This document shows, one piece after another, positions 43,849 through 56,888 of a DNA stretch of 64,000 bases (position 1 is its first letter; every line of letters begins with the position of its first letter). This stretch comes from Nannocystales bacterium. GTDB lineage: Bacteria > Myxococcota_A > Polyangia > Nannocystales > Nannocystaceae. Where the stretch lies: positions 96,001 through 160,000 of the forward strand of contig JBOEGF010000008.1 in NCBI GenBank assembly GCA_050633305.1, in the 5' to 3' direction. The notes beneath the pieces are model-generated. The model searched no databases and had not been told where the DNA came from. It saw only the letters and a list, made by a program, of their open reading frames with translations. A program made the translations under genes and the position numbers.

Positions 43849-45153
43849 TCACTCAACGGGCATACGTGCGCCGAGGCTGGCCTTCGCAGCGGCACTTCGG
43901 GGGATCGCGTCAACCGCAACACCGCCCGCCAACACCGATGGCGTGCCGTCCGAGAGATCGACCCACGCCAGTGCCAACTCGGATCCAACGCGCTCCAGGT
44001 GAGGGAAACCGGCGCGGCGCGACGCCTCGGTCGACGCGACTCGCAGGGGCTCCGAGCGTTCCCCGGAGCGGTTCACGCGGCGGATCCGAATCTCGGCGGC
44101 CTTCTCGACCGCCTCGATCCACACCACCGCCACGGAGTCATCGTCCAGCCAAACGAGGTCGACTCTTCCCAGGGGGTTGCCATCGTCTACTGCGACAGGC
44201 CGCGAGAACGGGCGGTTCCCATCCGCGAAGGCGACATGGACAGCCCCCACTTTCGTCGCGCCGGAGAACCACGCGACGGCAAGCGCCTCGCCCCGCGCCG
44301 ACACCGATGGACCGTTGACCGGGCACCCGTCGATGCGCCAGTCATCAACCCCTACCCGGCGCCGCTGCTCGGGCCCAGGTCCGGCGAGCCAGATGTCTCG
44401 GACTTCATTCTCGTCGCGGTCTCGGTACGCGACAACTGGACCCCGGGGGGTTGCACTCGCGGCGGTTTGACAGCAGTCGCACACGCGCTCGTCCACGACC
44501 CGGCGGTCGATGATCCCGGACTCCGACACCGTCGCCGACCAGAGCTGCACGGCCCCGCCGTGGCTCGTCGTCGATGCCCTGCCGTCCAACCAGAATGCAG
44601 TGGTCGTGCCGCTGGGGTCGGCCGCCCATGAGATGAATCCGAACTCCGGGCCCTCCAAAGCGTCCGAGACGGGACCCGGTTCGACCCAAGAGCCATCGGG
44701 GCGGGTCCGAGACCATTGCAGGTCGTAGCCATGCTCATCGCGTCGCTGCGGCCAGGCCGCGATCCAACCGTACGAAGTGGGCACCACGCTTGGCAGGTCC
44801 GCCCAGTTCTGGAGGAGCTCGGGGTTGGAGACGACGGTCTTCGTGGGTCCCTCATGTCCCCATTGCCGGGCACGAAGGCGGTGCCCCTGGCCATCCGGCT
44901 CCAGCCAGCTCAGCACCGCGCCGGAAGCACCCGCCGTCAAGCGGGGCGAGCCGGCGCCCGGTCGGGTGTCGAGAAACACCGGCTTCATCGGGAGCTGGCC
45001 GATGCCCGGGGCTTCAGCCTCGACCACGGGAGCTTCCGCGGGCGCGGGTGCCTCTTCCTTCGCACAGCCGACAGGAGTCAGAGCCACCGCGAGCACAAAG
45101 CAGATTGCAGGGCAGCTCGAGGACACCCCCGTAGGGTGGCACAGGCGCGACAT
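43849..45153 (-). CDS. BNR/sialidase-like beta-propeller lipoprotein with CDCC and GCPVNGP motifs
   Basis: Lipobox 'PVGC'; 'NWADLPSV', 'WLDGR', 'VCDCCQT', 'YRDR...RDI', 'WRIDGCPVNGP', 'RRAGFP'. Confidence 0.7.
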   Translation of the reverse strand: MSRLCHPTGVSSSCPAICFVLAVALTPVGCAKEEAPAPAEAPVVEAEAPGIGQLPMKPVFLDTRPGAGSPRLTAGASGAVLSWLEPDGQGHRLRARQWGHEGPTKTVVSNPELLQNWADLPSVVPTSYGWIAAWPQRRDEHGYDLQWSRTRPDGSWVEPGPVSDALEGPEFGFISWAADPSGTTTAFWLDGRASTTSHGGAVQLWSATVSESGIIDRRVVDERVCDCCQTAASATPRGPVVAYRDRDENEVRDIWLAGPGPEQRRRVGVDDWRIDGCPVNGPSVSARGEALAVAWFSGATKVGAVHVAFADGNRPFSRPVAVDDGNPLGRVDLVWLDDDSVAVVWIEAVEKAAEIRIRRVNRSGERSEPLRVASTEASRRAGFPHLERVGSELALAWVDLSDGTPSVLAGGVAVDAIPRSAAAKASLGARMPVE

Positions 45154-45158
45154 GACAT

Positions 45159-48100
45159 TCACCCCGGAACGGGAACACCCAACGTCGTGCAGATCGACTC
45201 CAGGACGTCGCTTCTCCGACTCGCCCACGTTGCAGCGTCCACGTGCAGCACGGTCCATCCCCGGAGCCGGAGGACCGCAGGACGATGCACGAACTGCTCA
45301 AAGGCCGAAGCACCCACCGCCCCCTCGTCGGTCATGACCGCGAGCGTGTAGGCTTCCTCGCCGGACTTCCCGACCGCCAACGGGATGCGGAAGTCCGAGG
45401 TTCCCATGTGCAGGGCGCAGCGCAGGCCCGTGGACTCGAGCGCCAACATCACCTGACTCGCCAGGGGCAGATGGCCGTCGAGCTTGGACCCAACCGCGAG
45501 CGCCTCCGCGGCAGCACGAGGTGTTCCGCGCACACCATCGAGAATACGCTCGGCAACCTCGAACCGGCGCTTGGACAGGGCGTGCGCATAGTCGAGGTAT
45601 CCCTTGAACAGCCGTGGACCTGTGTGCATCGAGTTGCCAACACGCAGCAACGCGGGGTCGAAGGAGGACACCACGTAGCACTCCGCCTTGGCTCGCGAGA
45701 TCGCGACGTTGAGCCGCCGCTCTCCGCCGCGCTGCCCCAGCGGGCCGAACCGAGCCGGCACATACAGCTCGCCCTCCCCCCCGCGACGTTTGCGATGCAC
45801 GGGGGCGTGGCCCAGGGAGAACACGATGACGTCGCGCTCGTCGCCCTGGACCGACTCCAGGTTCTTCACAAACGGGCGCTCGTCCAGCTCCTCGTGGGTG
45901 CTCGCCGTCTGCCACAGTCCCGCGAAGGTATCGTCATCGTCGAGTCGGGACTCGATCTGGTCGAGGATCGCAGCGCGCTGCTTGAGGTTGAACGTCACCA
46001 CGCCCACGCTCGGCGGCTTCGGCCGCCCGAGTAGCTCCGCGAGCAGCTCGACCACGCGCGAGGCCTCCACATGGTTGACCCCGCTGTCGTACGCGCCGCC
46101 CTCGACAGGAAGCCAACGCAGCGCCGACTCACCATGGGGTCCTGACGTGGAAGGGATGGTGAGGAGGTCCCCTTCGTACATCGCGTGGTTGGAGAACGCG
46201 ATCAGCTCCTCCTCGCGGCAACGGTAGTGCCACTTCAGGCCAGCGTGTGGACACCGATTGCGGGTGAGCGAGAGCAGCGACTCGGCGGCGAACATGTCCC
46301 GGGTCTGGGCCTGCGCTTCGGTCAGGTCGTCGTCCTCGGTGCTGCTCGAGCTCGCCTTGAAATACGAGGTCGGCGGCATCTGCTTCTCATCGCCCGCAAC
46401 AACAACCTGTTTGGCTCGGAGAAACACCGGCAGCCCAGATTCGACCGTGCACTGCGACGCTTCGTCGAAGATCACCAAGTCGAACAGCGGTGCCCTCGGA
46501 AAGAGCACCGTCATCGTCTCCGGCGAAACCAGCCAGCACGGGAGGACGTCGAGGATTCCGTCGTCCGCGAAGTCGCGCACGAGTTGCCGAAGCGGCATCA
46601 AGCTGCGTGACTTGGACGTCTCCTTGAGGAGCGACTCCTTGACCTTCTGCTCCGGCGTTCGGCGAGCGCGGTACTCGGCGTCCGGGATGGACAGCAGGTC
46701 GGCCTGATCCAGCGTCGCATTGATGCCCTGAACCTCGAGATCCGCGATGTCGCTCTCCAGCGTGGCGAGCTTGCCGATCGCTTCTTCGGCCCGCTGCCCC
46801 TGCGCCGGGCTGCCCAGGTCTCCCAGCGCAGGCAGAAACGCCTCGAGACGGCGCAGGTGGGCGTCGCCCCACGCCCGCGACAGCCCTTCGCGCCATGCCC
46901 TTGCGTCCTCGTCTGGGCTCGAGGTCCGCAGTGCATCGAGCCACACCCGGGCATCCGCGTGCACGATGTCGGTCTGGGCAAGCCAACCGTCTGCCTCACG
47001 CAGGCGATGCCCGTCGGCGCGAAGACGCGTGGCAAACGTCGGAAGGGCATCCAGCTCCAACGAGCCCAGGAAGGCAAACCGGGCGACCGCAGGGGCAAGC
47101 GCAGCCCGGACCTCGTCGTCCGCACGACGCTGTGCCTCGCGATGTTCCAGCATGATGCGAAGCGCTGCGAGCTGGGCGGCGTTGCTCGGCGGAGCCAGGC
47201 CAAGCACGCCAAGTGCTTCGGCGTGGATCCGCACGACCGTCACAGCCTCGGCCGAGGCCCGAAGCGTCTCGACGCTGGTCTGCGCGGCAGCGGCATCCTT
47301 GGGGGTCAGCTCCGGACGACCAAGGCCTTCGAACGCGTCGCGAAGCGCCTCCCAGGCCGTCGCCGCATCGATCCTCTGTTGTAGCTCCCCGAGGAAATTG
47401 GCGCTGAAGCCATCGGCCGCGCGTTCGGGCCAAACCTTCGGCAATGCATCCCGGACCTCGCCTCGTGTCCGCCACCACAGCGGGGAGAAGAACCGAACCA
47501 GTCGCCCGGCAAAGCTACGAAGCACCGCCACGTTGCGGGTGAACGCGTCGGTTGGAAGTGCCAACGGCGTGCCATGGGTCGCGAGCGCCGTCGATTCCGC
47601 CGACCATGCCGACGTCACCGCTTCAACGTCGAGGGAAGCGCCCGACCACACGGCGCACACCAGCGCCTCCGCTTGCTCGGCGAGCTCGAGCAGTGTGCGT
47701 ACAGCCGCGATTCCGTCGGCGGCCATGTGCAGCGTCGCGACAGGCACCGGGTGTTGTTCCCGCAACGGCCTGGACGTCTCCGCGCGCGCGACCGAGTCCG
47801 CCGTGACGCGCTGCAGAACAGCCAAGTCCTCATCGCCGAGGTCTGCCAGGCTCGAACGCTCGCCCTGGCACCGCCACCACCCGGCCGGGTCCCAGAGTTC
47901 GCCGTAGGGGTGCAAGCGCTCGACCAGTTCCAGCAGGCGGGTGAGGCCCTCCCGCGGGAGGTCCACGAGCGAGGGAGCCTTCATTGGAGGGTCTCCCCCT
48001 GCGAGCAGGGCCAGCAGCTCGCCGACACACAGCCCCACCTGTGGGTCTACATGCGCAAGCGTGCTGCGGCGGGTCTCGAGTGTCGTTCTGGCCCGCTCGT

Positions 48101-50876
48101 GGTCGGCCTGCAACACATCGGCTCGGGTCCGGTTGTGTTTGCGGGGCTTGAAGTCCTTGAGGCGGGCCGAGATCTTCGTGAACAACGCCTTGCGGTCGTC
48201 GCCGACGTCGTGGACGAGCGCGACGGCATCGTCGACTCCAACCCCTGCGAGGCGTTGCTGCACGACATCGAGCGCTGCCCGTTTCTCCGCAACAACGGCG
48301 ACCCGCGCTCCACGACGAAGCGCATCGGCCACCATGTTGACGATGAGCTGGCTCTTCCCGGTCCCCGGCGGTCCATCCACCACAGTGACCAGGTTCTTGG
48401 CGCACGCTGACGCGACGGCGCGCTGACTGGGGTCCGAAGGCAGCACGGGCCACCCTGGAACATGCTCGGGGATCGCAGGAGACGCGTCGCTTCGCAGACC
48501 CGCGGGGAGGAGCCCAAACCCGGCCGAGAGCACCTCGGCGAGCGGACGCGCTCCCTCCTCCAGTTCGCGAAGGAGCGCGTCGTAGTCATGCAGGAGCTCC
48601 GAACTCGACTGCGGGAACAAGCCCAGCACCGCGCACTCTTCCACGATCAGCAGCGCGTCGTCTCCGTCCAGCACATCGTCGCGGTCACGGAACGCACCGA
48701 GTGTTGTCCCCTCCACGCCAATCGAGACCCCAACCGCGCGAAGGCGGTCGATCAGCGCGGGCACATCCCCGGCGAGACCGTCGAGCTCTCGGGCGAGGTC
48801 GTCGGGAAGCGCGAGTCCGGCCTTGTCGAATAAGAGCCGCAGCAACGCCCCGTTCGCGACGGCCTCCTGGTCTTCGCGCGGCTCCAGCGAGAAGCCACGA
48901 GCGCCCCGCCCATCGCGTTCGAGCCGCACGGGACGAAGCACCAACGGCCCGCGCACGCCGTACGACTCCCCGGGGTTCTCGGCGACCTCGACCCGACCGA
49001 GCAACACCGGGTAGCCGATGCACAGATCGTTGGCGCCCGTCTCCTCCCGAGCGTCGCGCGCCAGCCGGTCGAGTTGGCGGAGTTCGTCGGCACAAGCACC
49101 GGCCGCTTCCTGCCGCCCGGCGTCTTCGGGCGTCACCAAGACCGCGGTTTTCCCGGCCTGCACCAGCGCAAGCGCTCGTTCGGGGGTGCCCTTTCGAACG
49201 GCCTCCAAACGGAACAGGTCAAAGACCCGGCGGCTGCGTGTGACCGACCGCAGGCGCACCGACGGACTGCGACCGTCCCCGGAGATCAGCGTGTCGCGCA
49301 GGCGCGCCAACGCGGCCAGCAACGCTTGCCGGTCCGCGGGCAACGCGGGGTCTTCAGCCTCGACGGAAGCCACCCGAGTCCGGCTCCGGAGCGAGACCCG
49401 AGCATCCAGGGACACGGACGAGAGCGGCGGCACGACCTCGACCTCCCGTTGTTCCAAGAACCCCGCGACGCCCTGGAGCGCATGGTGGTCATCTTCTTCG
49501 GCCCCCATCAGCCGAAGCAACCGGCGCGGGGAGATCGCGGTTGACCCGGTCCGGTGCACGGCATCGGCCAACGCCCCCAGCGCGTCGCGAACCTCAGCCA
49601 TTCGCGCGGGGAGCGGGATGGAGGTCGGCAGCTCCTCCGCCGCATCGAGCTCAACCCCCTTGGCGGCCGCCACGGGACCGAGCCAAGTCCGAAATGCCTC
49701 GCCTGCTCCGAGCGCCTCTCCAAGCGCCAAGACCATTCGAAGCTCCCTGGGATCGACAACGTCATCCGCCCCGATGACATGCGAGACCAGCAAGAATAGG
49801 CGGCGTACCAGGTCCTCGCCGCCAGCCCGCACCAACCCGGCGGTCTCGTAGAACTGGGCATGGGCCGCCTCGGGCTCCAGCGATGCGGACCAGTCGGCCA
49901 CATGCGAGCCGAACGCATCCTCGAGTGCGGCCAGTTCCTCGTCCGAGACCTCCCCGTCCGCGCCCGCGACAAGGACGCCGCATGCCAATGCGCACTCGAA
50001 CACAAACGCGGGGAGCTCGGCTCGCTCGTCCTCGATGCGCAGCGACCCGCCCCCCGACACCGCGCTCAGCTTCGCGGAGATCTCAGCATCGATCTCTTCG
50101 AGTGGGCGACCTCCAGTGCCTCCGGTAGCGCTGTGGAACCGGTCACTCTGCGAGAAGTGCCACAGCGCCCAAACCCGCAGCGACGACGCGGGGACCTCGG
50201 TCTGCGTCCGCACATGCTCCTTGCACTGCTCGAGATACGCCCCGGTGTCGTCTCCGAGCGTCTCCCCGCGCAGTCCGGTGGCTGCGATCATCTCGAGCCG
50301 GAGCGCGGCGTGCAGGTCTTGGCACGCCAGCAAGCCAAACCGGTCTGCCGTGATCTCTCGGGCCAAGACCCCGCGCTGCGTGAGTGCGACCGTCTGCGGA
50401 TCGAGGAGCCCCCGCCGTCCCATCGTGACCGCGACGCACAGCGCATCACCGCCCGTGTCTTGGGGACCGTGGGCCAAACAGTGCCCAAGTTCGTGTCCGA
50501 ACAATGCCCTCGCCGCACCATCGTCGAGCAGCGCGAGAAGTCGTTCGGAGACCTCGAGCATCATCGGTTCGGCAACTCGATGCAACGCGAGGTTCTCGTG
50601 CGCATCAGCGCGGAGCAGCTCGTGCGAAGCGGCCAGCGCGAAGGTCTGCTTCACCTCTTCGATGCGTTGGTGCGCCGCAGGGGCCATCGAAAGAGGAATC
50701 CGTCGGCCTTCTGCGAGCAACCGTTGCCGGACGCGCTGCGGGTCCGAGGGCACAATCGCCCTGCGATGGGCTTCGTAATCCACGATCGTGGCCGCAAGAG
50801 CCTCGGCGATTTCCCGCTCGAGGCCGAAGCGGACACGATCTGCATCGAGGTCGACAAGGACCGCGCGAACGCTCAT
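45159..50876 (-). CDS. 1905-aa fusion: M48-like peptidase + TerB-like + DUF4011 + Upf1/DNA2-like SF1 helicase + Vsr/REase-like domain
   Basis: HELGH and 'EITADR'; 'ADGEVSDEE' and 'ADDVVDPRE'; 'EETGANDL...GPLVLRPVRL'; GPPGTGKS, DEASQ, GDEKQMPP, HYRC, QGDERD, RLNVAISRAK; C-terminal 'GTSDFRIPLAV...LRGWTVLHV'. Confidence 0.85.
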   Translation of the reverse strand: MSVRAVLVDLDADRVRFGLEREIAEALAATIVDYEAHRRAIVPSDPQRVRQRLLAEGRRIPLSMAPAAHQRIEEVKQTFALAASHELLRADAHENLALHRVAEPMMLEVSERLLALLDDGAARALFGHELGHCLAHGPQDTGGDALCVAVTMGRRGLLDPQTVALTQRGVLAREITADRFGLLACQDLHAALRLEMIAATGLRGETLGDDTGAYLEQCKEHVRTQTEVPASSLRVWALWHFSQSDRFHSATGGTGGRPLEEIDAEISAKLSAVSGGGSLRIEDERAELPAFVFECALACGVLVAGADGEVSDEELAALEDAFGSHVADWSASLEPEAAHAQFYETAGLVRAGGEDLVRRLFLLVSHVIGADDVVDPRELRMVLALGEALGAGEAFRTWLGPVAAAKGVELDAAEELPTSIPLPARMAEVRDALGALADAVHRTGSTAISPRRLLRLMGAEEDDHHALQGVAGFLEQREVEVVPPLSSVSLDARVSLRSRTRVASVEAEDPALPADRQALLAALARLRDTLISGDGRSPSVRLRSVTRSRRVFDLFRLEAVRKGTPERALALVQAGKTAVLVTPEDAGRQEAAGACADELRQLDRLARDAREETGANDLCIGYPVLLGRVEVAENPGESYGVRGPLVLRPVRLERDGRGARGFSLEPREDQEAVANGALLRLLFDKAGLALPDDLARELDGLAGDVPALIDRLRAVGVSIGVEGTTLGAFRDRDDVLDGDDALLIVEECAVLGLFPQSSSELLHDYDALLRELEEGARPLAEVLSAGFGLLPAGLRSDASPAIPEHVPGWPVLPSDPSQRAVASACAKNLVTVVDGPPGTGKSQLIVNMVADALRRGARVAVVAEKRAALDVVQQRLAGVGVDDAVALVHDVGDDRKALFTKISARLKDFKPRKHNRTRADVLQADHERARTTLETRRSTLAHVDPQVGLCVGELLALLAGGDPPMKAPSLVDLPREGLTRLLELVERLHPYGELWDPAGWWRCQGERSSLADLGDEDLAVLQRVTADSVARAETSRPLREQHPVPVATLHMAADGIAAVRTLLELAEQAEALVCAVWSGASLDVEAVTSAWSAESTALATHGTPLALPTDAFTRNVAVLRSFAGRLVRFFSPLWWRTRGEVRDALPKVWPERAADGFSANFLGELQQRIDAATAWEALRDAFEGLGRPELTPKDAAAAQTSVETLRASAEAVTVVRIHAEALGVLGLAPPSNAAQLAALRIMLEHREAQRRADDEVRAALAPAVARFAFLGSLELDALPTFATRLRADGHRLREADGWLAQTDIVHADARVWLDALRTSSPDEDARAWREGLSRAWGDAHLRRLEAFLPALGDLGSPAQGQRAEEAIGKLATLESDIADLEVQGINATLDQADLLSIPDAEYRARRTPEQKVKESLLKETSKSRSLMPLRQLVRDFADDGILDVLPCWLVSPETMTVLFPRAPLFDLVIFDEASQCTVESGLPVFLRAKQVVVAGDEKQMPPTSYFKASSSSTEDDDLTEAQAQTRDMFAAESLLSLTRNRCPHAGLKWHYRCREEELIAFSNHAMYEGDLLTIPSTSGPHGESALRWLPVEGGAYDSGVNHVEASRVVELLAELLGRPKPPSVGVVTFNLKQRAAILDQIESRLDDDDTFAGLWQTASTHEELDERPFVKNLESVQGDERDVIVFSLGHAPVHRKRRGGEGELYVPARFGPLGQRGGERRLNVAISRAKAECYVVSSFDPALLRVGNSMHTGPRLFKGYLDYAHALSKRRFEVAERILDGVRGTPRAAAEALAVGSKLDGHLPLASQVMLALESTGLRCALHMGTSDFRIPLAVGKSGEEAYTLAVMTDEGAVGASAFEQFVHRPAVLRLRGWTVLHVDAATWASRRSDVLESICTTLGVPVPG

Positions 50877-50891
50877 CGAGCGCAGCGTACG

Positions 50892-51686
50892 TCACAGCGG
50901 GCCGCGCATGTGCACGAACCGAAATGGGACCCGCGCCCCTGCCTCGACCAGTCGCTGCGTGAAAGCGTCGACGTCTTCACTCACGACGCCCATCTCGGGT
51001 CCCGTCGCGTGCGCCCGCAGGGCGTGCAGCAGCGCGGTCGCGACCTCGACCGACTCCGCTCGGAACGGGAACGATCCCTGCCGCGCCAGGTCAAAGGTCG
51101 CGACGCCGCAGGGCATTGACCCGTCGACGAGGACCGCACGAACGAGCCCTGTGGGGCGGGACCGCACCGAGGCAAGCTGCCCCATCGGAAGCTCGAAGCG
51201 TTCCTCGAGCAGCGCGATCTGTTCCGGGTCCGGGTCGATGACCCCCGGGGTCCCCGACGCCGCGGGCAGCGAGTCGACAAGCGCCGGAGGAAACCGCAGC
51301 GAAGTACACGGGTGGTGAACCTCCAACCCCATAGATGCATAAAGCCCGAGCGCCGCAGTGTTGTCGTCCCGCACGTTGAGACGCCAGCTCGAGCAACCGG
51401 CACCCCGCATCTGCGACACGACACGATGCACCAAAGATCGCCCGGCACCGGTCCGCCGCGCCTGCGGGTCGACGACGAGATGCCGAATGTATCCGTCGTC
51501 TCCGAAGACCTGGGCGAAGCAGTACCCAACCGGCTGCCCTTGGGACTCGGCGATGGTGCTCAGCGGCGCAAGTTCGTCTCGCCATCGCTCCGGGGAGGGG
51601 GTCGGGTCCCCCGACTCCAACATGGGAAACCACCGCTCGAAACACGGGTAGTCGGAAGGCCGCCCGGGGCGCAGATGAATCCCCAT
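50892..51686 (-). CDS. GNAT family N-acetyltransferase with second C-terminal domain
   Basis: 'YIRHLVVDPQARRTGAGRSL', 'LNVRDDNTAALGLYASMG'; ATG at 51686. Confidence 0.85.
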   Translation of the reverse strand: MGIHLRPGRPSDYPCFERWFPMLESGDPTPSPERWRDELAPLSTIAESQGQPVGYCFAQVFGDDGYIRHLVVDPQARRTGAGRSLVHRVVSQMRGAGCSSWRLNVRDDNTAALGLYASMGLEVHHPCTSLRFPPALVDSLPAASGTPGVIDPDPEQIALLEERFELPMGQLASVRSRPTGLVRAVLVDGSMPCGVATFDLARQGSFPFRAESVEVATALLHALRAHATGPEMGVVSEDVDAFTQRLVEAGARVPFRFVHMRGPL

Positions 51687-51764: not shown

Positions 51765-54338
51765 GTGCCCAGACCGAATCGAGGAGGTCCGGCGAGCACC
51801 GAGCACACGCTCACCGACGCCGGACTGCGGCGGCGGGTCACGCTCCAAGCCGGCGACCGCGTCGGCCGATACCGAATCCTGCACACGCTTGGTTCGGGAG
51901 GCATGGGCACCGTCTACGCGGCGACCGACCCCGACCTCGACCGAACCATCGCGATCAAGGTCTTGCATGACCGTCCGGGTCGGAAGGTACGAGCGCAAGC
52001 CCTGCTTCACGAGGCCCAGGCGATGGCTCAGTTCTCCCACCCCAACGTGGTGACGGTCCACGATGTGGGCACCCATGAGGGACGGGTCTTCGTCGCGATG
52101 GACTGGGTCCGTGGACCTACCCTGAGGTCTTGGATGAAGGGCCGACCTTGGGACGCAGTGTTGCGGGCATTTTTGCAAGCTGGCCGAGGACTGGCCGCCG
52201 TCCACGCCGCCGGACTGGTCCACCGTGATTTCAAACCCGCGAACGTCATGCTGCACCCCGGCGGGCGCGTCGTCGTGATGGACTTTGGACTCGCGCGACC
52301 CAGCGATGACAGCAGCGGGCAAGCCGAGTGTTCCCCAATCCGGAGCGCTCACAACACGTACGACGACGACGTCAGCCGTGCTGGATCGGTGCAAGGCACC
52401 CCCGCGTACATGGCTCCCGAGCAGCACCTCGCGTTCGACGTTGACGCCCGTGCCGACCAGTTCAGCTACTGCGTCTCTGTCTTCGAGGGTCTGTTCGGCA
52501 AGAGGCCCTTCCGTGCCCGGACCGTCACCGAGTTGGTCATGCGGATCTCCGCAGGCGAGTTTGCCGATGTTCCGCGCAACGGCGTGCCACCGCGCATCCG
52601 CCGAACGCTGACCCGAGGCCTGGCCGAGCTTCCCAAGGACCGCTGGCCCAACATGGAGCGTCTGCTCGACCGCCTACAGCCCGCGGCGCGTGGCACCTGG
52701 ATGATCTGGGGCGCAGGGGCGGCCGCGTTGTCGACCGTCGCTTTTGCCGCCATTCCCCCGGCCGATCCGTGCGAGACCCGCTCAGACGCCGTTCGTGAGC
52801 TGTGGTCCAAGCAGCGCCGCAACACGCTCCTGACCGCCTTGCGCTCCTCACCCAAGCCGTTTGCCGACGAGACCGCGCAGCGAGTGGACACCACCATCGC
52901 GGCCTACGTGGATAGGCTCGCTGATGCACACGACGAGGCATGCCAGGTGAGCATCGACCCGACGTTGCTCGACCGACGGACTGCGTGTCTGAGTCAGCGC
53001 GCAGGGGCGGTCCGCGCCACGACCGATGCGCTCACCGCCTCGGCGGAAGATGGACTGCAGAAGGCCGTACAGGTGCTCGGACACCTGCCCGACGTCGAAG
53101 CCTGTCTCGACCCCGAGGCGCTCGCCCGGACCCACGAACTGCCCGCAGACGAGGCAAGGCGGGACGAGATCGGGCACGCCCGAGACGCGATCAGCGAGGC
53201 TCTCGCAATGAAGGAGGCGGGGGATCTCGAAGGTGCATACGCCCGCGCCAAGGCGGCGTTGGTTCTGGCCCGAGACGCTGGCTTCTCCCCGGTCGAGGCA
53301 GAAGCCCTCAACGCCTGGAGTGCAGCGCAGGAAGGCCGAGGAGACTATGCCGAAGCCGCCGCAACCTCCGAAGCTGCGTTCCACGTCGCACACTCGTCCC
53401 ACCACGACGTCGAAGCCCTCCGAGCGACGGTGCAGCTGGTCTACGTCGTCGGGTACCGACTCCAGCAACCGGACACGGCAGACGAGTGGTTGCGACACGC
53501 CGCCGCGTTGCTCTCCCGGATCGAACACCGCGGACTGGAGGCTCGGCTGATCAACAACGAGGCCACCCTGGCCTACAGCGCGGGTGACTATGACGGCGCC
53601 GTGCGAGGGTTCGAGCGGACCGCCGAGCTTCGCGAGTCCCTGCAAGGGCCCGAGCACCCCGACGTCGCCGCCGCGCACAGCAACATGGGGCTGGCTCTCA
53701 CCCGGCTCGGTCGTCTCGAAGACGCTCTGCAACACCACGCCCGTGCCCGCTCGTCGTGGGAAGCCTCGCTGGGGCCCTCGCATCCCATGGTCGCGATCTC
53801 TGTCCACAACCGAGCCCTCGTGTTCGAACAGATGAAGCATCTCGACGAGGCCGCGGCCGAGTACGAGCGGGCTATCGAGCTCCGGATTCGCAGCCAGGGC
53901 GCGGAGCACCCCTCCGTGGCCTTGTCTCTGAACAACCTTGGCCACGTGCGCAAGGACCAAGGACGCCCGCTGGACGCACTGGAGCTACACCAACGAGCGC
54001 TCGCGCTGTGGCACGAGGCGTACGGCCCCGAACACCGCAGGGTCGCCGAGGCGTTGGGCGGGATCGCCGAGGCCCTGAGCAAGCAATCGCGGTTCGAAGA
54101 AGCCTACCGGTTCGCGGACCGAAGCCTGTCGACGATGGCCGCGGTGGTGGGGACCCACCACCCAGACTTCGCCCACACCCTGATGACGCAGGCCGAGATC
54201 CTGGTCGCCCAGGGCGACGTCGGCGGTGCCATCGCGCGCTACCAGCAGGCTCGTTCGATTTTCGTGAATGCGCAGGGAACCGACTCGGCGATGGTGAAGC
54301 ACATCGACGCGGGCCTGAAGCAGCTCGCCACGCCATGA
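51765..54338 (+). CDS. Membrane-anchored Ser/Thr protein kinase with C-terminal TPR repeats
   Basis: 'LGSGGMGTVY', 'AIKVL', 'HRDFKPAN', 'DFGLAR', 'GTPAYMAPE', TM, TPRs 'HPDVAAAHSNMG', 'HPSVALSLNNLG'. Confidence 0.93.
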   Translation: MPRPNRGGPASTEHTLTDAGLRRRVTLQAGDRVGRYRILHTLGSGGMGTVYAATDPDLDRTIAIKVLHDRPGRKVRAQALLHEAQAMAQFSHPNVVTVHDVGTHEGRVFVAMDWVRGPTLRSWMKGRPWDAVLRAFLQAGRGLAAVHAAGLVHRDFKPANVMLHPGGRVVVMDFGLARPSDDSSGQAECSPIRSAHNTYDDDVSRAGSVQGTPAYMAPEQHLAFDVDARADQFSYCVSVFEGLFGKRPFRARTVTELVMRISAGEFADVPRNGVPPRIRRTLTRGLAELPKDRWPNMERLLDRLQPAARGTWMIWGAGAAALSTVAFAAIPPADPCETRSDAVRELWSKQRRNTLLTALRSSPKPFADETAQRVDTTIAAYVDRLADAHDEACQVSIDPTLLDRRTACLSQRAGAVRATTDALTASAEDGLQKAVQVLGHLPDVEACLDPEALARTHELPADEARRDEIGHARDAISEALAMKEAGDLEGAYARAKAALVLARDAGFSPVEAEALNAWSAAQEGRGDYAEAAATSEAAFHVAHSSHHDVEALRATVQLVYVVGYRLQQPDTADEWLRHAAALLSRIEHRGLEARLINNEATLAYSAGDYDGAVRGFERTAELRESLQGPEHPDVAAAHSNMGLALTRLGRLEDALQHHARARSSWEASLGPSHPMVAISVHNRALVFEQMKHLDEAAAEYERAIELRIRSQGAEHPSVALSLNNLGHVRKDQGRPLDALELHQRALALWHEAYGPEHRRVAEALGGIAEALSKQSRFEEAYRFADRSLSTMAAVVGTHHPDFAHTLMTQAEILVAQGDVGGAIARYQQARSIFVNAQGTDSAMVKHIDAGLKQLATP

Positions 54339-55297: not shown

Positions 55298-55666
55298 ATG
55301 CTCTACGCAATGCTCATCTATCACGCCGAGGGCGCGTTCGACCACGACGGGGCCGACGATCGCGAGGCCATGTTGCTCCAGCACCGAACGCTGCAAAACG
55401 ACAGCAAGGCCGCCGACGCGTTCGTCGTCGCCACACAGCTCATGGATCCCCATACATCGACGGTCGTACGACGCAACGGGGATGCCATCTCGGTCCAAGA
55501 AGGCCCGTTTGCCGAGACCAACGAGGTGTTCGTCGGCTTCTACTTGCTGGAGTGCGAATCGCTGGAAGCCGCTGCGCGCTGGGCAGAACGCATCCCCCGA
55601 GCGACGGTGGAGATTCGCCCGGTCGCCTATTTCGAGGACCACAGCGGAAAAACCGTCGGTGAGTAG
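55298..55666 (+). CDS. YCII-related (DGPF-type) protein
   Basis: 'YAMLIY', 'EGPFAETNEVFVGFYLLEC', 'VEIRPV'. Confidence 0.9.
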   Translation: MLYAMLIYHAEGAFDHDGADDREAMLLQHRTLQNDSKAADAFVVATQLMDPHTSTVVRRNGDAISVQEGPFAETNEVFVGFYLLECESLEAAARWAERIPRATVEIRPVAYFEDHSGKTVGE

Positions 55667-56888
55667 CGCGGTCCATCGCGCGCTCCGCAGCGCCTATCCC
55701 CAGGCTCTGGCGACCCTCAACCGCATCGCGGGGGACTTGGAGATGGCGCAGGACGGCCTCCACGTCGCGGTGGAACGCGCACTCCTCCGCTGGGCCGATG
55801 AGTTGCCCGCCGAGCCCGTCGCCTGGCTCGTTCGCGCCGGACGCAACACGATCATCGATCAGCTCCGTCACCGGGCGATGAAGGAGCGCAAGGACGACGC
55901 GTTGCGGCAAGCGCTGGACGCGGACCGAGTCGACGACGACCAGCTTCGCTCCGCGTTTCGTGATGACATGGCGCGACTCGTGTTCACGTGCTGCGATCCC
56001 CGACTCAAACCGGACACGGCCGTGATGTTGACGTTGCACACGGTGGCGGGGCTCTCGGTCGACGAGATCGCCCGCGCCTACCTCATGAAGAACACGGCGA
56101 TCGAGCGGCGGATCAGTCGGGCTCGTCGCGCAGTCCGCGAGCTTGAAGGTGGTTACCAGCCGCCGACAGAATCCGAGCTGCCGGCCCGTCTGGACGCTGT
56201 ACTCGCGGTGCTGATGGTGCTGTTCACCGAAGGCTACAGCGCCCGGGAGACCGCGCCATTCCTGCGCCCCCAGCTCTGCGAACTCGCCATCCGCTCCACA
56301 CGGATGCTCGCGCGCTTGTTTCGCGAAGAGGCCGAAGTCCAGGGACTTCTGGCCCTGATGCTGCTTCAGCATGCTCGTGCAGAGGCACGTCTCCTCCCAC
56401 CGGACCGTCTCGTCTCCCTCGAGGACCAGGACCGCACGTTGTGGGACCAGGGGATCTGCAACGAAGGGCTGGCACTGGTCCAGAAGGCGTTGCTTCGCAA
56501 GCGGCTGGGCCCTTATCAGATCCAGGCCGCGATCGCTGCGGTCCATGCGAGTGCCGCGGACTATCAATCCACCAACTGGCAGGAACTCGTCCTCTTGTAC
56601 GACGCCCTGCTCCGGCACCGACCCAATTCCGTGGTTCGGCTCAATCGCGCCGTGGCGGTGTCCCGTGCTCGGGGGCCCAAAGTTGGGCTGGCCCTGCTCC
56701 GCGAACTCGCACCCGAGCCGGGCATGAGCACGTACTCCCCATACTTCGTGGTCCAAGGACACCTGCTTGCGGAATCAGGGAAGGGCTCACAGGCGGTCAC
56801 GGCGTTTGAGCGGGCCCTCACGCTGTGCACCAGCCCGCTGCAACGTCGACACCTCGAACGCCTCCTCGAGGACCTGCAAACGAACTAG
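55659..56888 (+). CDS. ECF RNA polymerase sigma factor with C-terminal TPR extension (ECF42-like)
   Basis: 'AWLVRAGRNTIIDQLR', 'DDMARLVFTCCDP', 'GLSVDEIARAYL', 'LFTEGY', 'LEDQDRTLWD', 'GPYQIQAAIAAVH', 'VRLNRAVA'; overlaps YCII gene. Confidence 0.9.
   Translation: MSSAVHRALRSAYPQALATLNRIAGDLEMAQDGLHVAVERALLRWADELPAEPVAWLVRAGRNTIIDQLRHRAMKERKDDALRQALDADRVDDDQLRSAFRDDMARLVFTCCDPRLKPDTAVMLTLHTVAGLSVDEIARAYLMKNTAIERRISRARRAVRELEGGYQPPTESELPARLDAVLAVLMVLFTEGYSARETAPFLRPQLCELAIRSTRMLARLFREEAEVQGLLALMLLQHARAEARLLPPDRLVSLEDQDRTLWDQGICNEGLALVQKALLRKRLGPYQIQAAIAAVHASAADYQSTNWQELVLLYDALLRHRPNSVVRLNRAVAVSRARGPKVGLALLRELAPEPGMSTYSPYFVVQGHLLAESGKGSQAVTAFERALTLCTSPLQRRHLERLLEDLQTN

Follow-up and report, generated by a model that had tools for sequence, protein, structure and literature searches.

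The window, that is, the whole stretch of 64,000 nucleotides analysed here, contains on its minus strand a gene for a protein of 1905 amino acids in which an M48-type metallopeptidase is joined to a helicase. The features of this gene and its two neighbours are the following:

50892..51674, minus strand: GNAT acetyltransferase gene, upstream, 16 nt before the gene start
45159..50876, minus strand: whole gene, a single intact open reading frame of 1905 aa in the order M48, TerB, winged helix (wH), DUF4011, SF1 helicase, degenerate Vsr/REase
50049..50849, minus strand: M48-type zinc metallopeptidase domain, about aa 10-276
50481..50495, minus strand: HELGH, aa 128-132, zinc ligands H128 and H132 and catalytic E129, intact in the window copy
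50340..50357, minus strand: EITADR, third zinc ligand E174, plus D178; by motif, the equivalents of BepA E201 and D205
50175..50195, minus strand: VPASSLR, remnant of the HPX4R plug (family form HPEHSLR); the His and about 10 residues before it are missing
49647..50021, minus strand: TerB-like helical domain, aa 286-410, with two acidic loops
49935-49961 and 49743-49769, minus strand: TerB acidic loops, D307/E314 and D371/E378
49377..49616, minus strand: winged-helix-like domain, aa 421-500, with a weak fold match (Z about 5.5)
48507..49334, minus strand: DUF4011-containing region, aa 515-790, Pfam match at aa 594-682
49023-49046, minus strand: EETGANDL, DUF4011-like motif, position exact
48351..48374, minus strand: Walker A GPPGTGKS of the Upf1/IGHMBP2/Dna2-type SF1 helicase, motif intact
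46680..48131, minus strand: long all-helical insert within the helicase, aa 916-1399
45567..46679, minus strand: C-terminal helicase part, with Walker B DEASQ (46452-46466), QGDER and motif VI all intact
45177..45494, minus strand: Vsr/REase_MTES_1575-like domain, canonical catalytic residues missing
43849..45153, minus strand: downstream co-directional gene without a Pfam match, adjoining the gene in the related genomes G403 and G405

A chimera or frameshift confined to this assembly, which the first-pass annotation of the sequence had named as a possible artefact, was ruled out as the origin of the gene: the frame is uninterrupted, GC3 stays at 0.72-0.89 throughout, and 157 fetched proteins carry the fusion. 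The gene start is backed by homologues and by a remnant of the gene in another genome of the genus (G402). All motif positions proposed by that annotation were exact on re-check, and its domain calls (M48, TerB, DUF4011, helicase, and a Vsr/REase-like fold) are supported by Pfam, fold matches, and motifs. Three features come in addition to these calls: a winged-helix-like domain (aa 421-500), a tail whose catalytic residues are lost, and, in the window copy, the loss of the HPX4R plug.

In a Pfam search with the whole protein, DUF4011 (aa 594-682), AAA_11, AAA_12, and MTES_1575 (aa 1807-1899) were matched, and M48 and TerB were not matched at E ≤ 0.01. With aa 1-500 alone, TerB (E 0.0016, 19.1 bits vs a cut-off of 24.4) and M48 (PF01435; E 0.0024, 18.2 bits vs a gathering score of 20.3) both stayed below threshold. 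Among 14 aligned homologues, TerB was matched in 13 and M48 in 11 at E ≤ 0.05, the best M48 match having an E-value of 1.4e-7. We modelled aa 1-790 with AlphaFold (pLDDT 89), and a wide structural search returned two TerB structures as the best fold matches (2ou3, Z 8.5; 2h5n, Z 8.1), followed by the M48 proteases 3c37 (Z 7.8, rmsd 4.8, 159 aligned), BepA (6sar, Z 7.1), ZMPSTE24 (6bh8, Z 6.8), and Ste24 (4il3, Z 6.3), with winged-helix proteins at aa 423-503 (Z about 5.5); Z values of this size are mid-range and carry weight only in combination with the motifs. Foldseek on the same model returned no hit at E ≤ 0.001, the first one listed being BepA at E 0.43, and neither a PDB sequence search with aa 1-520 nor an ESM Atlas search with the wH domain gave a usable result. 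The TerB loop residues D307, E314, D371, and E378 were kept in 72/72 homologues. Since the best 19-residue hydropathy window of the whole protein is only 1.98 and lies within TerB, the protein is likely soluble.

The model of aa 720-1905 (pLDDT 88) matches the fold of Upf1, IGHMBP2, Dna2, and Sen1, with a Foldseek E-value of 2.6e-10 to Upf1 and a Z of 18.8 to IGHMBP2. Walker A and Walker B are 636 aa apart in the window protein, and the spacing in the family is 507-1025 aa (median 650, n = 145).

Five of the seven genomes of the genus carry the gene, in a housekeeping locus. It directly follows the GNAT gene in G000, G403, G404, and G405, lies on a short contig in G401, and is missing from the GNAT site in G406. 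G402 has the same neighbours, and there the first 9-10 codons are fused to sequence resembling the last ~30 bases of the gene. The motif GTCGA(C/T)CT is found at both gene ends in the window; read from its sequence, the G402 remnant is a deletion scar. We regard the GNAT gene as context and not as a partner, because its position is conserved across the genus and G402 and G406 have it without the fusion gene. The same applies to the downstream gene, which is adjacent in G403 and G405, absent from G404, and located elsewhere in G406. An obligate partner gene was ruled out, as the neighbours do not recur beyond the genus, and so was a defence island at the window locus, where the neighbours encode the GNAT protein, a kinase-TPR protein, a DEAD helicase, and a glycosyltransferase and where no GC dip was seen. 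A sigma-70 promoter scan gave no usable result, and one DNA run returned short pieces over 25/30 bins, with no joints and no piece across the gene.

Spread and neighbourhoods of the fusion family

Using aa 1-510 as query, we obtained 72 proteins, every one with DUF4011 and AAA_11; M48, TerB, and the Walker A domain occur together in 157 of 277 fetched proteins. The peptidase-TerB-helicase fusion that had been proposed from the window alone is thus real and conserved. Five of the 158 proteins having the C-terminal helicase part are without M48. These begin at or after TerB, and one of them is the shortened counterpart of a protein also found at full length (P0077 and P0279); for P0106 and L096, a split or a truncation is a possible explanation. 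A search for shorter forms yielded three proteins, two of them labelled partial.

The spread of the family over Myxococcota, Gammaproteobacteria, and Opitutaceae is patchy, with fusion loci in Myxococcota, Rhodanobacteraceae, Fulvimonas, Amphritea, Gilvimarinus, Hydrocarboniphaga, and Opitutaceae. The N-terminal module was matched to any extent in 46 and almost in full in 13 of 401 genomes of the window phylum, in a survey that scored only three candidates per genome. No member was found on the plasmids searched (best identity 36%) or on the viral contigs searched, and a metagenome scan with P0218 gave two loci, one of them a normal fusion. Free-standing M48 or M48-TerB genes (~350-540 aa) are widespread, including two in the window genome, and are the apparent source of the N-terminal module. 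As for a two-gene ancestor of the fusion, five divergent M48-TerB-wH proteins of 450-530 aa came from short contigs and are at most candidates.

In order to compare gene neighbourhoods, up to three ORFs per side were scanned by Pfam at 41 of 44 fusion-type loci (209 ORFs), and 22 stand-alone M48(-TerB) loci (119 ORFs) served as a control, at a stricter E-value; PADLOC was then run on a selection of 81 neighbours, 65 of them at fusion loci and 16 at control loci. Neighbour ORFs were called by our own heuristic, and many loci stop at contig edges. We found defence neighbours at 10/41 fusion loci compared to 1/22 control loci, a difference for which the Fisher p (0.079 two-sided, 0.045 one-sided) is overstated by kinship. 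The remaining 31/41 fusion loci are without recognised ones, and stand-alone M48(-TerB) genes are rarely beside defence genes, the single control case being a ResIII-type helicase. BREX neighbours are present at L084, L091, L103, and L113, a type I RM system at L075, a DruE-like gene with UvrD and an integrase at L079, the candidate systems PDC-S06 and PDC-S27 at L087 and L073, respectively, and Gabija between integrases at L097. In Fulvimonas soli (L089), the gene lies inside a CRISPR I-G operon, between cas8g on one side and cas4-cas1, cas2, and the array on the other; at L113 it lies inside a BREX operon, between brxC and pglX, and it directly follows brxC in L103 and brxHI in L084. Embedding in defence operons has been used to predict defence genes, as described in the accessible text of 10.1101/2024.01.29.577857. 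The link of the family to defence is moderate: the defence association of homologues that the first-pass annotation proposed to score is visible in the counts, but it comes with the two-sided p above and with a window locus of housekeeping character.

ProA of Prometheus (NCBIfam NF058533) is the best named profile for the window protein, with 524 bits over aa 811-1898. Both combine DUF4011, a helicase carrying a long insertion, and an REase domain in a single protein, to judge from the accessible text on Prometheus (PMC13700489). However, the window protein is far below the profile cut-off of 1500 bits, with seven homologues at 468-561 bits, and it differs from ProA in having M48, TerB, and wH and no catalytic REase residues. 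The C-terminal DUF3320 of ProA was not found in the window protein, which ends ~5 aa past the REase domain, with no Pfam match. An M48-TerB fusion is not among the variants covered in the accessible text (WYL extension, lost domains, split gene), and Prometheus is described there as related to R-loop-acting enzymes, with a proposed role in nucleic-acid sensing (PMC13700489). The best PADLOC model is the candidate PDC-S37 (PDLC05009; 513 bits for the window protein, 455-542 with three homologues). This match comprises helicase and tail only (aa 811-1896, profile 291-1335 of 1550), with nothing in aa 1-590.

The closest models are therefore ProA/Prometheus and PDC-S37 and not Hhe, which had at first been taken as the nearest system. 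Hhe (NCBIfam NF042953, PADLOC PDLC02194) has the order DUF4011-helicase-Vsr in common with the window protein, and Hhe WP_021314612.1 is 33% identical to it over the C-terminal 496 columns. The window protein scores 338 bits vs a cut-off of 2000 for Hhe (seven homologues 293-355, true Hhe 2735). Hhe is without an M48, TerB, or wH match, and its N-terminus is unmatched by the M48/TerB profiles of the family; the earlier view that the peptidase-TerB extension does not belong to canonical Hhe was borne out in this respect. TerB and a helicase also occur together in Shango, a tested anti-phage defence; it differs in consisting of three genes (a TerB-like protein, an ATPase, and a helicase) and in having a DEAD/DEAH helicase, and no protease is named in the accessible text (10.1101/2022.11.11.516204). 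With M48 peptidases (BepA, HtpX, Ste24/ZMPSTE24) the family shares the fold, HExxH, ExxxD, and HPX4R. Unlike these and the free-standing M48-TerB proteins, it has the helicase fused on, and in the window copy the plug is missing. The window protein is a member of neither Hhe nor Prometheus but probably works like both in sensing.

No description of an M48-TerB-DUF4011-helicase fusion was found in the literature searched, which leaves most subscription journals outside. To this extent the first impression of an architecture not previously described stands, but the scaffold is akin to Hhe/Prometheus. Profile annotation names family members only "DUF4011", "AAA", or "RecA" and overlooks both changes, the loss of the nuclease residues and the gain of a protease module.

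Nuclease-like tail and zinc site

In the window tail, the Glu of FE is changed to Ala, the Asp of RID to Pro, the Glu of IECDG to Met, and the Asp of RD to Phe, and the His of YH is deleted; the MTES_1575 Pfam match lies just at the cut-off (38.4 vs 38.2 bits). Across 154 family tails, the IECDG Glu and the YH His are each found in 0/154 and the RID Asp in 3/154, the RD column being mostly His, Phe, or Tyr. A search for the motif [ILV]E[CF]DG found it in no member (0/146). The RID Asp is kept in 9/35 locus-derived proteins, mostly of a gammaproteobacterial branch, and an acidic residue occupies the ECD Asp column in 134/154 tails, with a conserved xDE pair. In contrast, catalytic residues are kept in 3/3 canonical DUF4011-type helicases from relatives ((S)xFE, xID, xECDG, YH, and RD), and Hhe WP_021314612.1 (SDFE, FIDL, IECDG, YH, and RD) and a DUF3320 protein likewise keep all Vsr catalytic residues. 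The tail nuclease looks dead across the family, so that the Vsr/REase-like domain of the first-pass annotation is upheld as a fold but not as a canonical catalytic site. With these residues missing throughout the family, the protease looks more like a substitute for the nuclease than like a further component of an Hhe-like set, which is how it had been taken. In Hhe, the Vsr-site mutant E1731A loses the weak activity against T7, according to the accessible text of 10.1101/2022.06.16.496414. We infer that E1731 is the IECDG Glu of Hhe; in the fetched allele WP_021314612.1 this Glu is residue 1727, and residue 1731 is Ala.

HExxH and the third ligand are kept in 149/157 fusion proteins, the plug His (HPEHxxR) in 143/157, and both in 142/157; D178 and R234 are kept in 72/72 homologues. 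For BepA, the accessible text of 10.64898/2026.07.01.735768 describes the HPX4R His as a fourth zinc ligand and an off-switch held by Asp205 and Arg252, and loss of this His (H246 variants) raises proteolysis. As zinc site and plug are both kept in most members, the M48 protease looks latent in the family. A complex prediction of M48-TerB with the nuclease-like tail scored 0.01 and gave no answer either way.

The window copy belongs to a clade of nine members (P0001-P0008 and G405) whose monophyly has an SH-aLRT of 100 in a quick tree of 61 rows chosen from the full-length set and which sits within the intact members. The plug His is kept in 0/9 of these. The zinc site is kept in 4/9 (P0001, P0002, P0004, and P0006), the window copy included, and the other 5/9 lost zinc ligands via different substitutions on separate branches; in most of these, the conserved NAA segment that precedes the active-site helix has changed as well. 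The mean M48-to-helicase distance ratio is 4.91 in the window clade (28 pairs) compared to 1.36 in the sister group (253 pairs), which corresponds to a ~3.6-fold faster drift of the M48 domain; the TerB ratio rises from 1.19 in the sister group to 2.1 in the clade, and the ratios of the tail (1.98 vs 2.09, clade vs sister) and of DUF4011 (1.9 vs 1.49) change little, all of these ratios being descriptive only because the pairs are not independent. The protease in the window genus is likely decaying. Helicase and TerB stay conserved in this protease-losing clade, so the protein can be useful without the protease. An E129A change in the window allele could be uninformative, given a housekeeping locus and a protease-decaying clade.

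A candidate nucleic-acid-gated protease and its alternatives

Since the cutting domain has lost its catalytic residues and a zinc-protease module is present, the family likely defends by cutting protein, not DNA. We tentatively favour a reading in which the Hhe/Prometheus-related helicase senses phage nucleic acid and then unlatches the latent zinc protease as the effector. DUF4011, the winged helix, and the nuclease-like tail would recognise a nucleic-acid structure of phage origin, the helicase, driven by ATP, would pull the plug His off the zinc as it moves, and the freed protease would cleave a host or phage protein, with TerB possibly tuning activation through metal or ligand binding. It is conceivable, if rather doubtful, that the Upf1-type helicase follows phage DNA, RNA, or R-loops and that the protease, in place of the nuclease, is released only once the target is reached, to strip off or cut proteins on the nucleic acid of the invader. 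Under the reading of a nucleic-acid-gated protease, the window genus would show decay of the system in progress. The window copy, if acting at all, would act through its intact helicase, because the protease is likely decaying in the genus.

The conservation of helicase, TerB, and DUF4011 in a clade from which plug and zinc ligands have disappeared, together with the invariant TerB loops (72/72), would also suit a helicase that defends alone or with a host partner, M48-TerB being a sensor or decoy for a phage protein or signal and proteolysis being secondary; Shango defends with TerB and a helicase, according to the accessible text of 10.1101/2022.11.11.516204. We consider this unlikely, as the full catalytic set found in 142/157 proteins across phyla would be needless for a pure binding module and as the genus without the protease has in two genomes lost the gene altogether (G402 and G406).

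A housekeeping function in repair appears quite improbable. By analogy to SprT/Wss1, a helicase-tethered protease might clear DNA-protein crosslinks or stalled complexes, with the non-cutting Vsr fold as a damage sensor. The 31/41 loci without defence neighbours, the synteny across the genus, as expected of a chromosomal gene, and the closest solved folds (IGHMBP2, Upf1, Dna2, and Sen1) are consistent with such a role. However, only 13/401 sampled genomes of the phylum have a near-full N-terminal module, the family is scattered over phyla and found within cas and brx operons, and every closely related profile family consists of defence proteins.

It is very unlikely that the tail is still a nuclease with a rebuilt site (the xDE pair, plus the RID Asp in one branch) and that the protease is a second effector of an Hhe-like protein. 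The acidic ECD Asp column (134/154), the RID Asp in 9/35 locus-derived proteins, and a MTES_1575 score that is still at the cut-off point in this direction, but four or five canonical residues are gone together, [ILV]E[CF]DG is found in none of the 146 members, and the family scores 31-58 bits compared to 115-121 in canonical relatives. Hardly to be expected, finally, is a window copy that is deregulated and not dying, i.e. an ungated protease (plug His lost, H128, E129, H132, and E174 kept) resembling the more proteolytic BepA variants without H246 in the accessible text of 10.64898/2026.07.01.735768: the zinc site is intact in P0001, P0002, P0004, and P0006, but its ligands were lost by different substitutions on separate branches in 5/9 clade members, most of which have an altered NAA segment, and the M48 domain drifts ~3.6-fold faster.

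If the favoured reading of a helicase-gated protease is true, the family would represent an effector swap on a known defence scaffold, with the same helicase sensor wired to proteolysis. Sensing and killing would then come apart in the Hhe/Prometheus group, which is still poorly understood, and release of the plug would provide a direct read-out of what these helicases detect. BepA and ZMPSTE24, the M48 proteases compared here, act at membranes; the M48 proteases would gain a cytoplasmic, nucleic-acid-gated member. Intact alleles are present in named isolates (Fulvimonas soli, Gilvimarinus agarilyticus, Amphritea pacifica, and Pseudenhygromyxa), which makes the claim of a protease effector testable.

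Two further links to defence lie in domains shuffled between the family and defence proteins. A C-terminal extension of >80 aa is present in 54/146 members, and its profile matches the C-terminus of BREX PglZ (E 5e-16). The wH domain recurs N-terminally in a DS-11-type CBS anti-phage protein of a relative (L067).

Extra and shared terminal domains in the family

Two family members, one of them from Nannocystis (P0044 and P0057), carry an additional exonuclease domain (PF00929) in their N-terminal 320 amino acids, which is possibly a regained nuclease effector. At the other terminus, a small C-terminal domain common to about one third of the family (P0033, P0114 and others) is also present at the C-terminus of one BREX PglZ protein (L084:2496-5450). 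At this BREX-associated locus, the family gene and the PglZ gene lie within one cluster.

Short, stand-alone and otherwise joined M48 proteins

A divergent M48-TerB-wH group of 450-530 amino acids (P0216, P0218, P0232, P0241 and P0270) ends past the winged-helix-like domain (wH), and HExxH is missing in three of these five proteins; their genomic context was sought and not found. At three loci, an unfused M48(-TerB) gene has other genes upstream of it: in L121 and L130 these are an Hsp70-like gene and unknown ORFs of 390 aa, and in L124 a caspase-domain gene. These arrangements possibly represent a separate proteolytic conflict system. Additionally, a 1551-codon open frame (L069:5363-10018, plus strand) combines an M48 domain with a 2-hydroxyglutaryl-CoA dehydratase D-component, and may be a fusion or two in-frame genes.

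Genomic surroundings and gene loss

Near the gene in the window, we found ordinary myxobacterial-type signalling genes:

51765-54338, plus strand, Ser/Thr kinase-TPR gene, divergent from GNAT
55298-56888, plus strand, YCII gene with ECF sigma factor carrying DUF6596

In a congener without the gene (G402), a clean deletion scar was identified (L159; G402:C11 near 84900-84947, minus strand): the entire 5.7-kb gene is gone, and its first codons are fused to its own 3' end via a short repeat found at both ends. The family gene embedded in the Fulvimonas soli cas operon is followed downstream by a type I-G CRISPR array (L089:17890-20850) of ~40 repeats, counted by eye. A DS-11-type CBS anti-phage protein (L067:17718-19016, minus strand; NF053863, 280 bits, above the cut-off) has the winged-helix-like domain twice at its N-terminus, one copy being clear and the other weak. 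The defence island that holds its gene also includes type I RM genes and encodes a canonical helicase-REase of 1272 aa.
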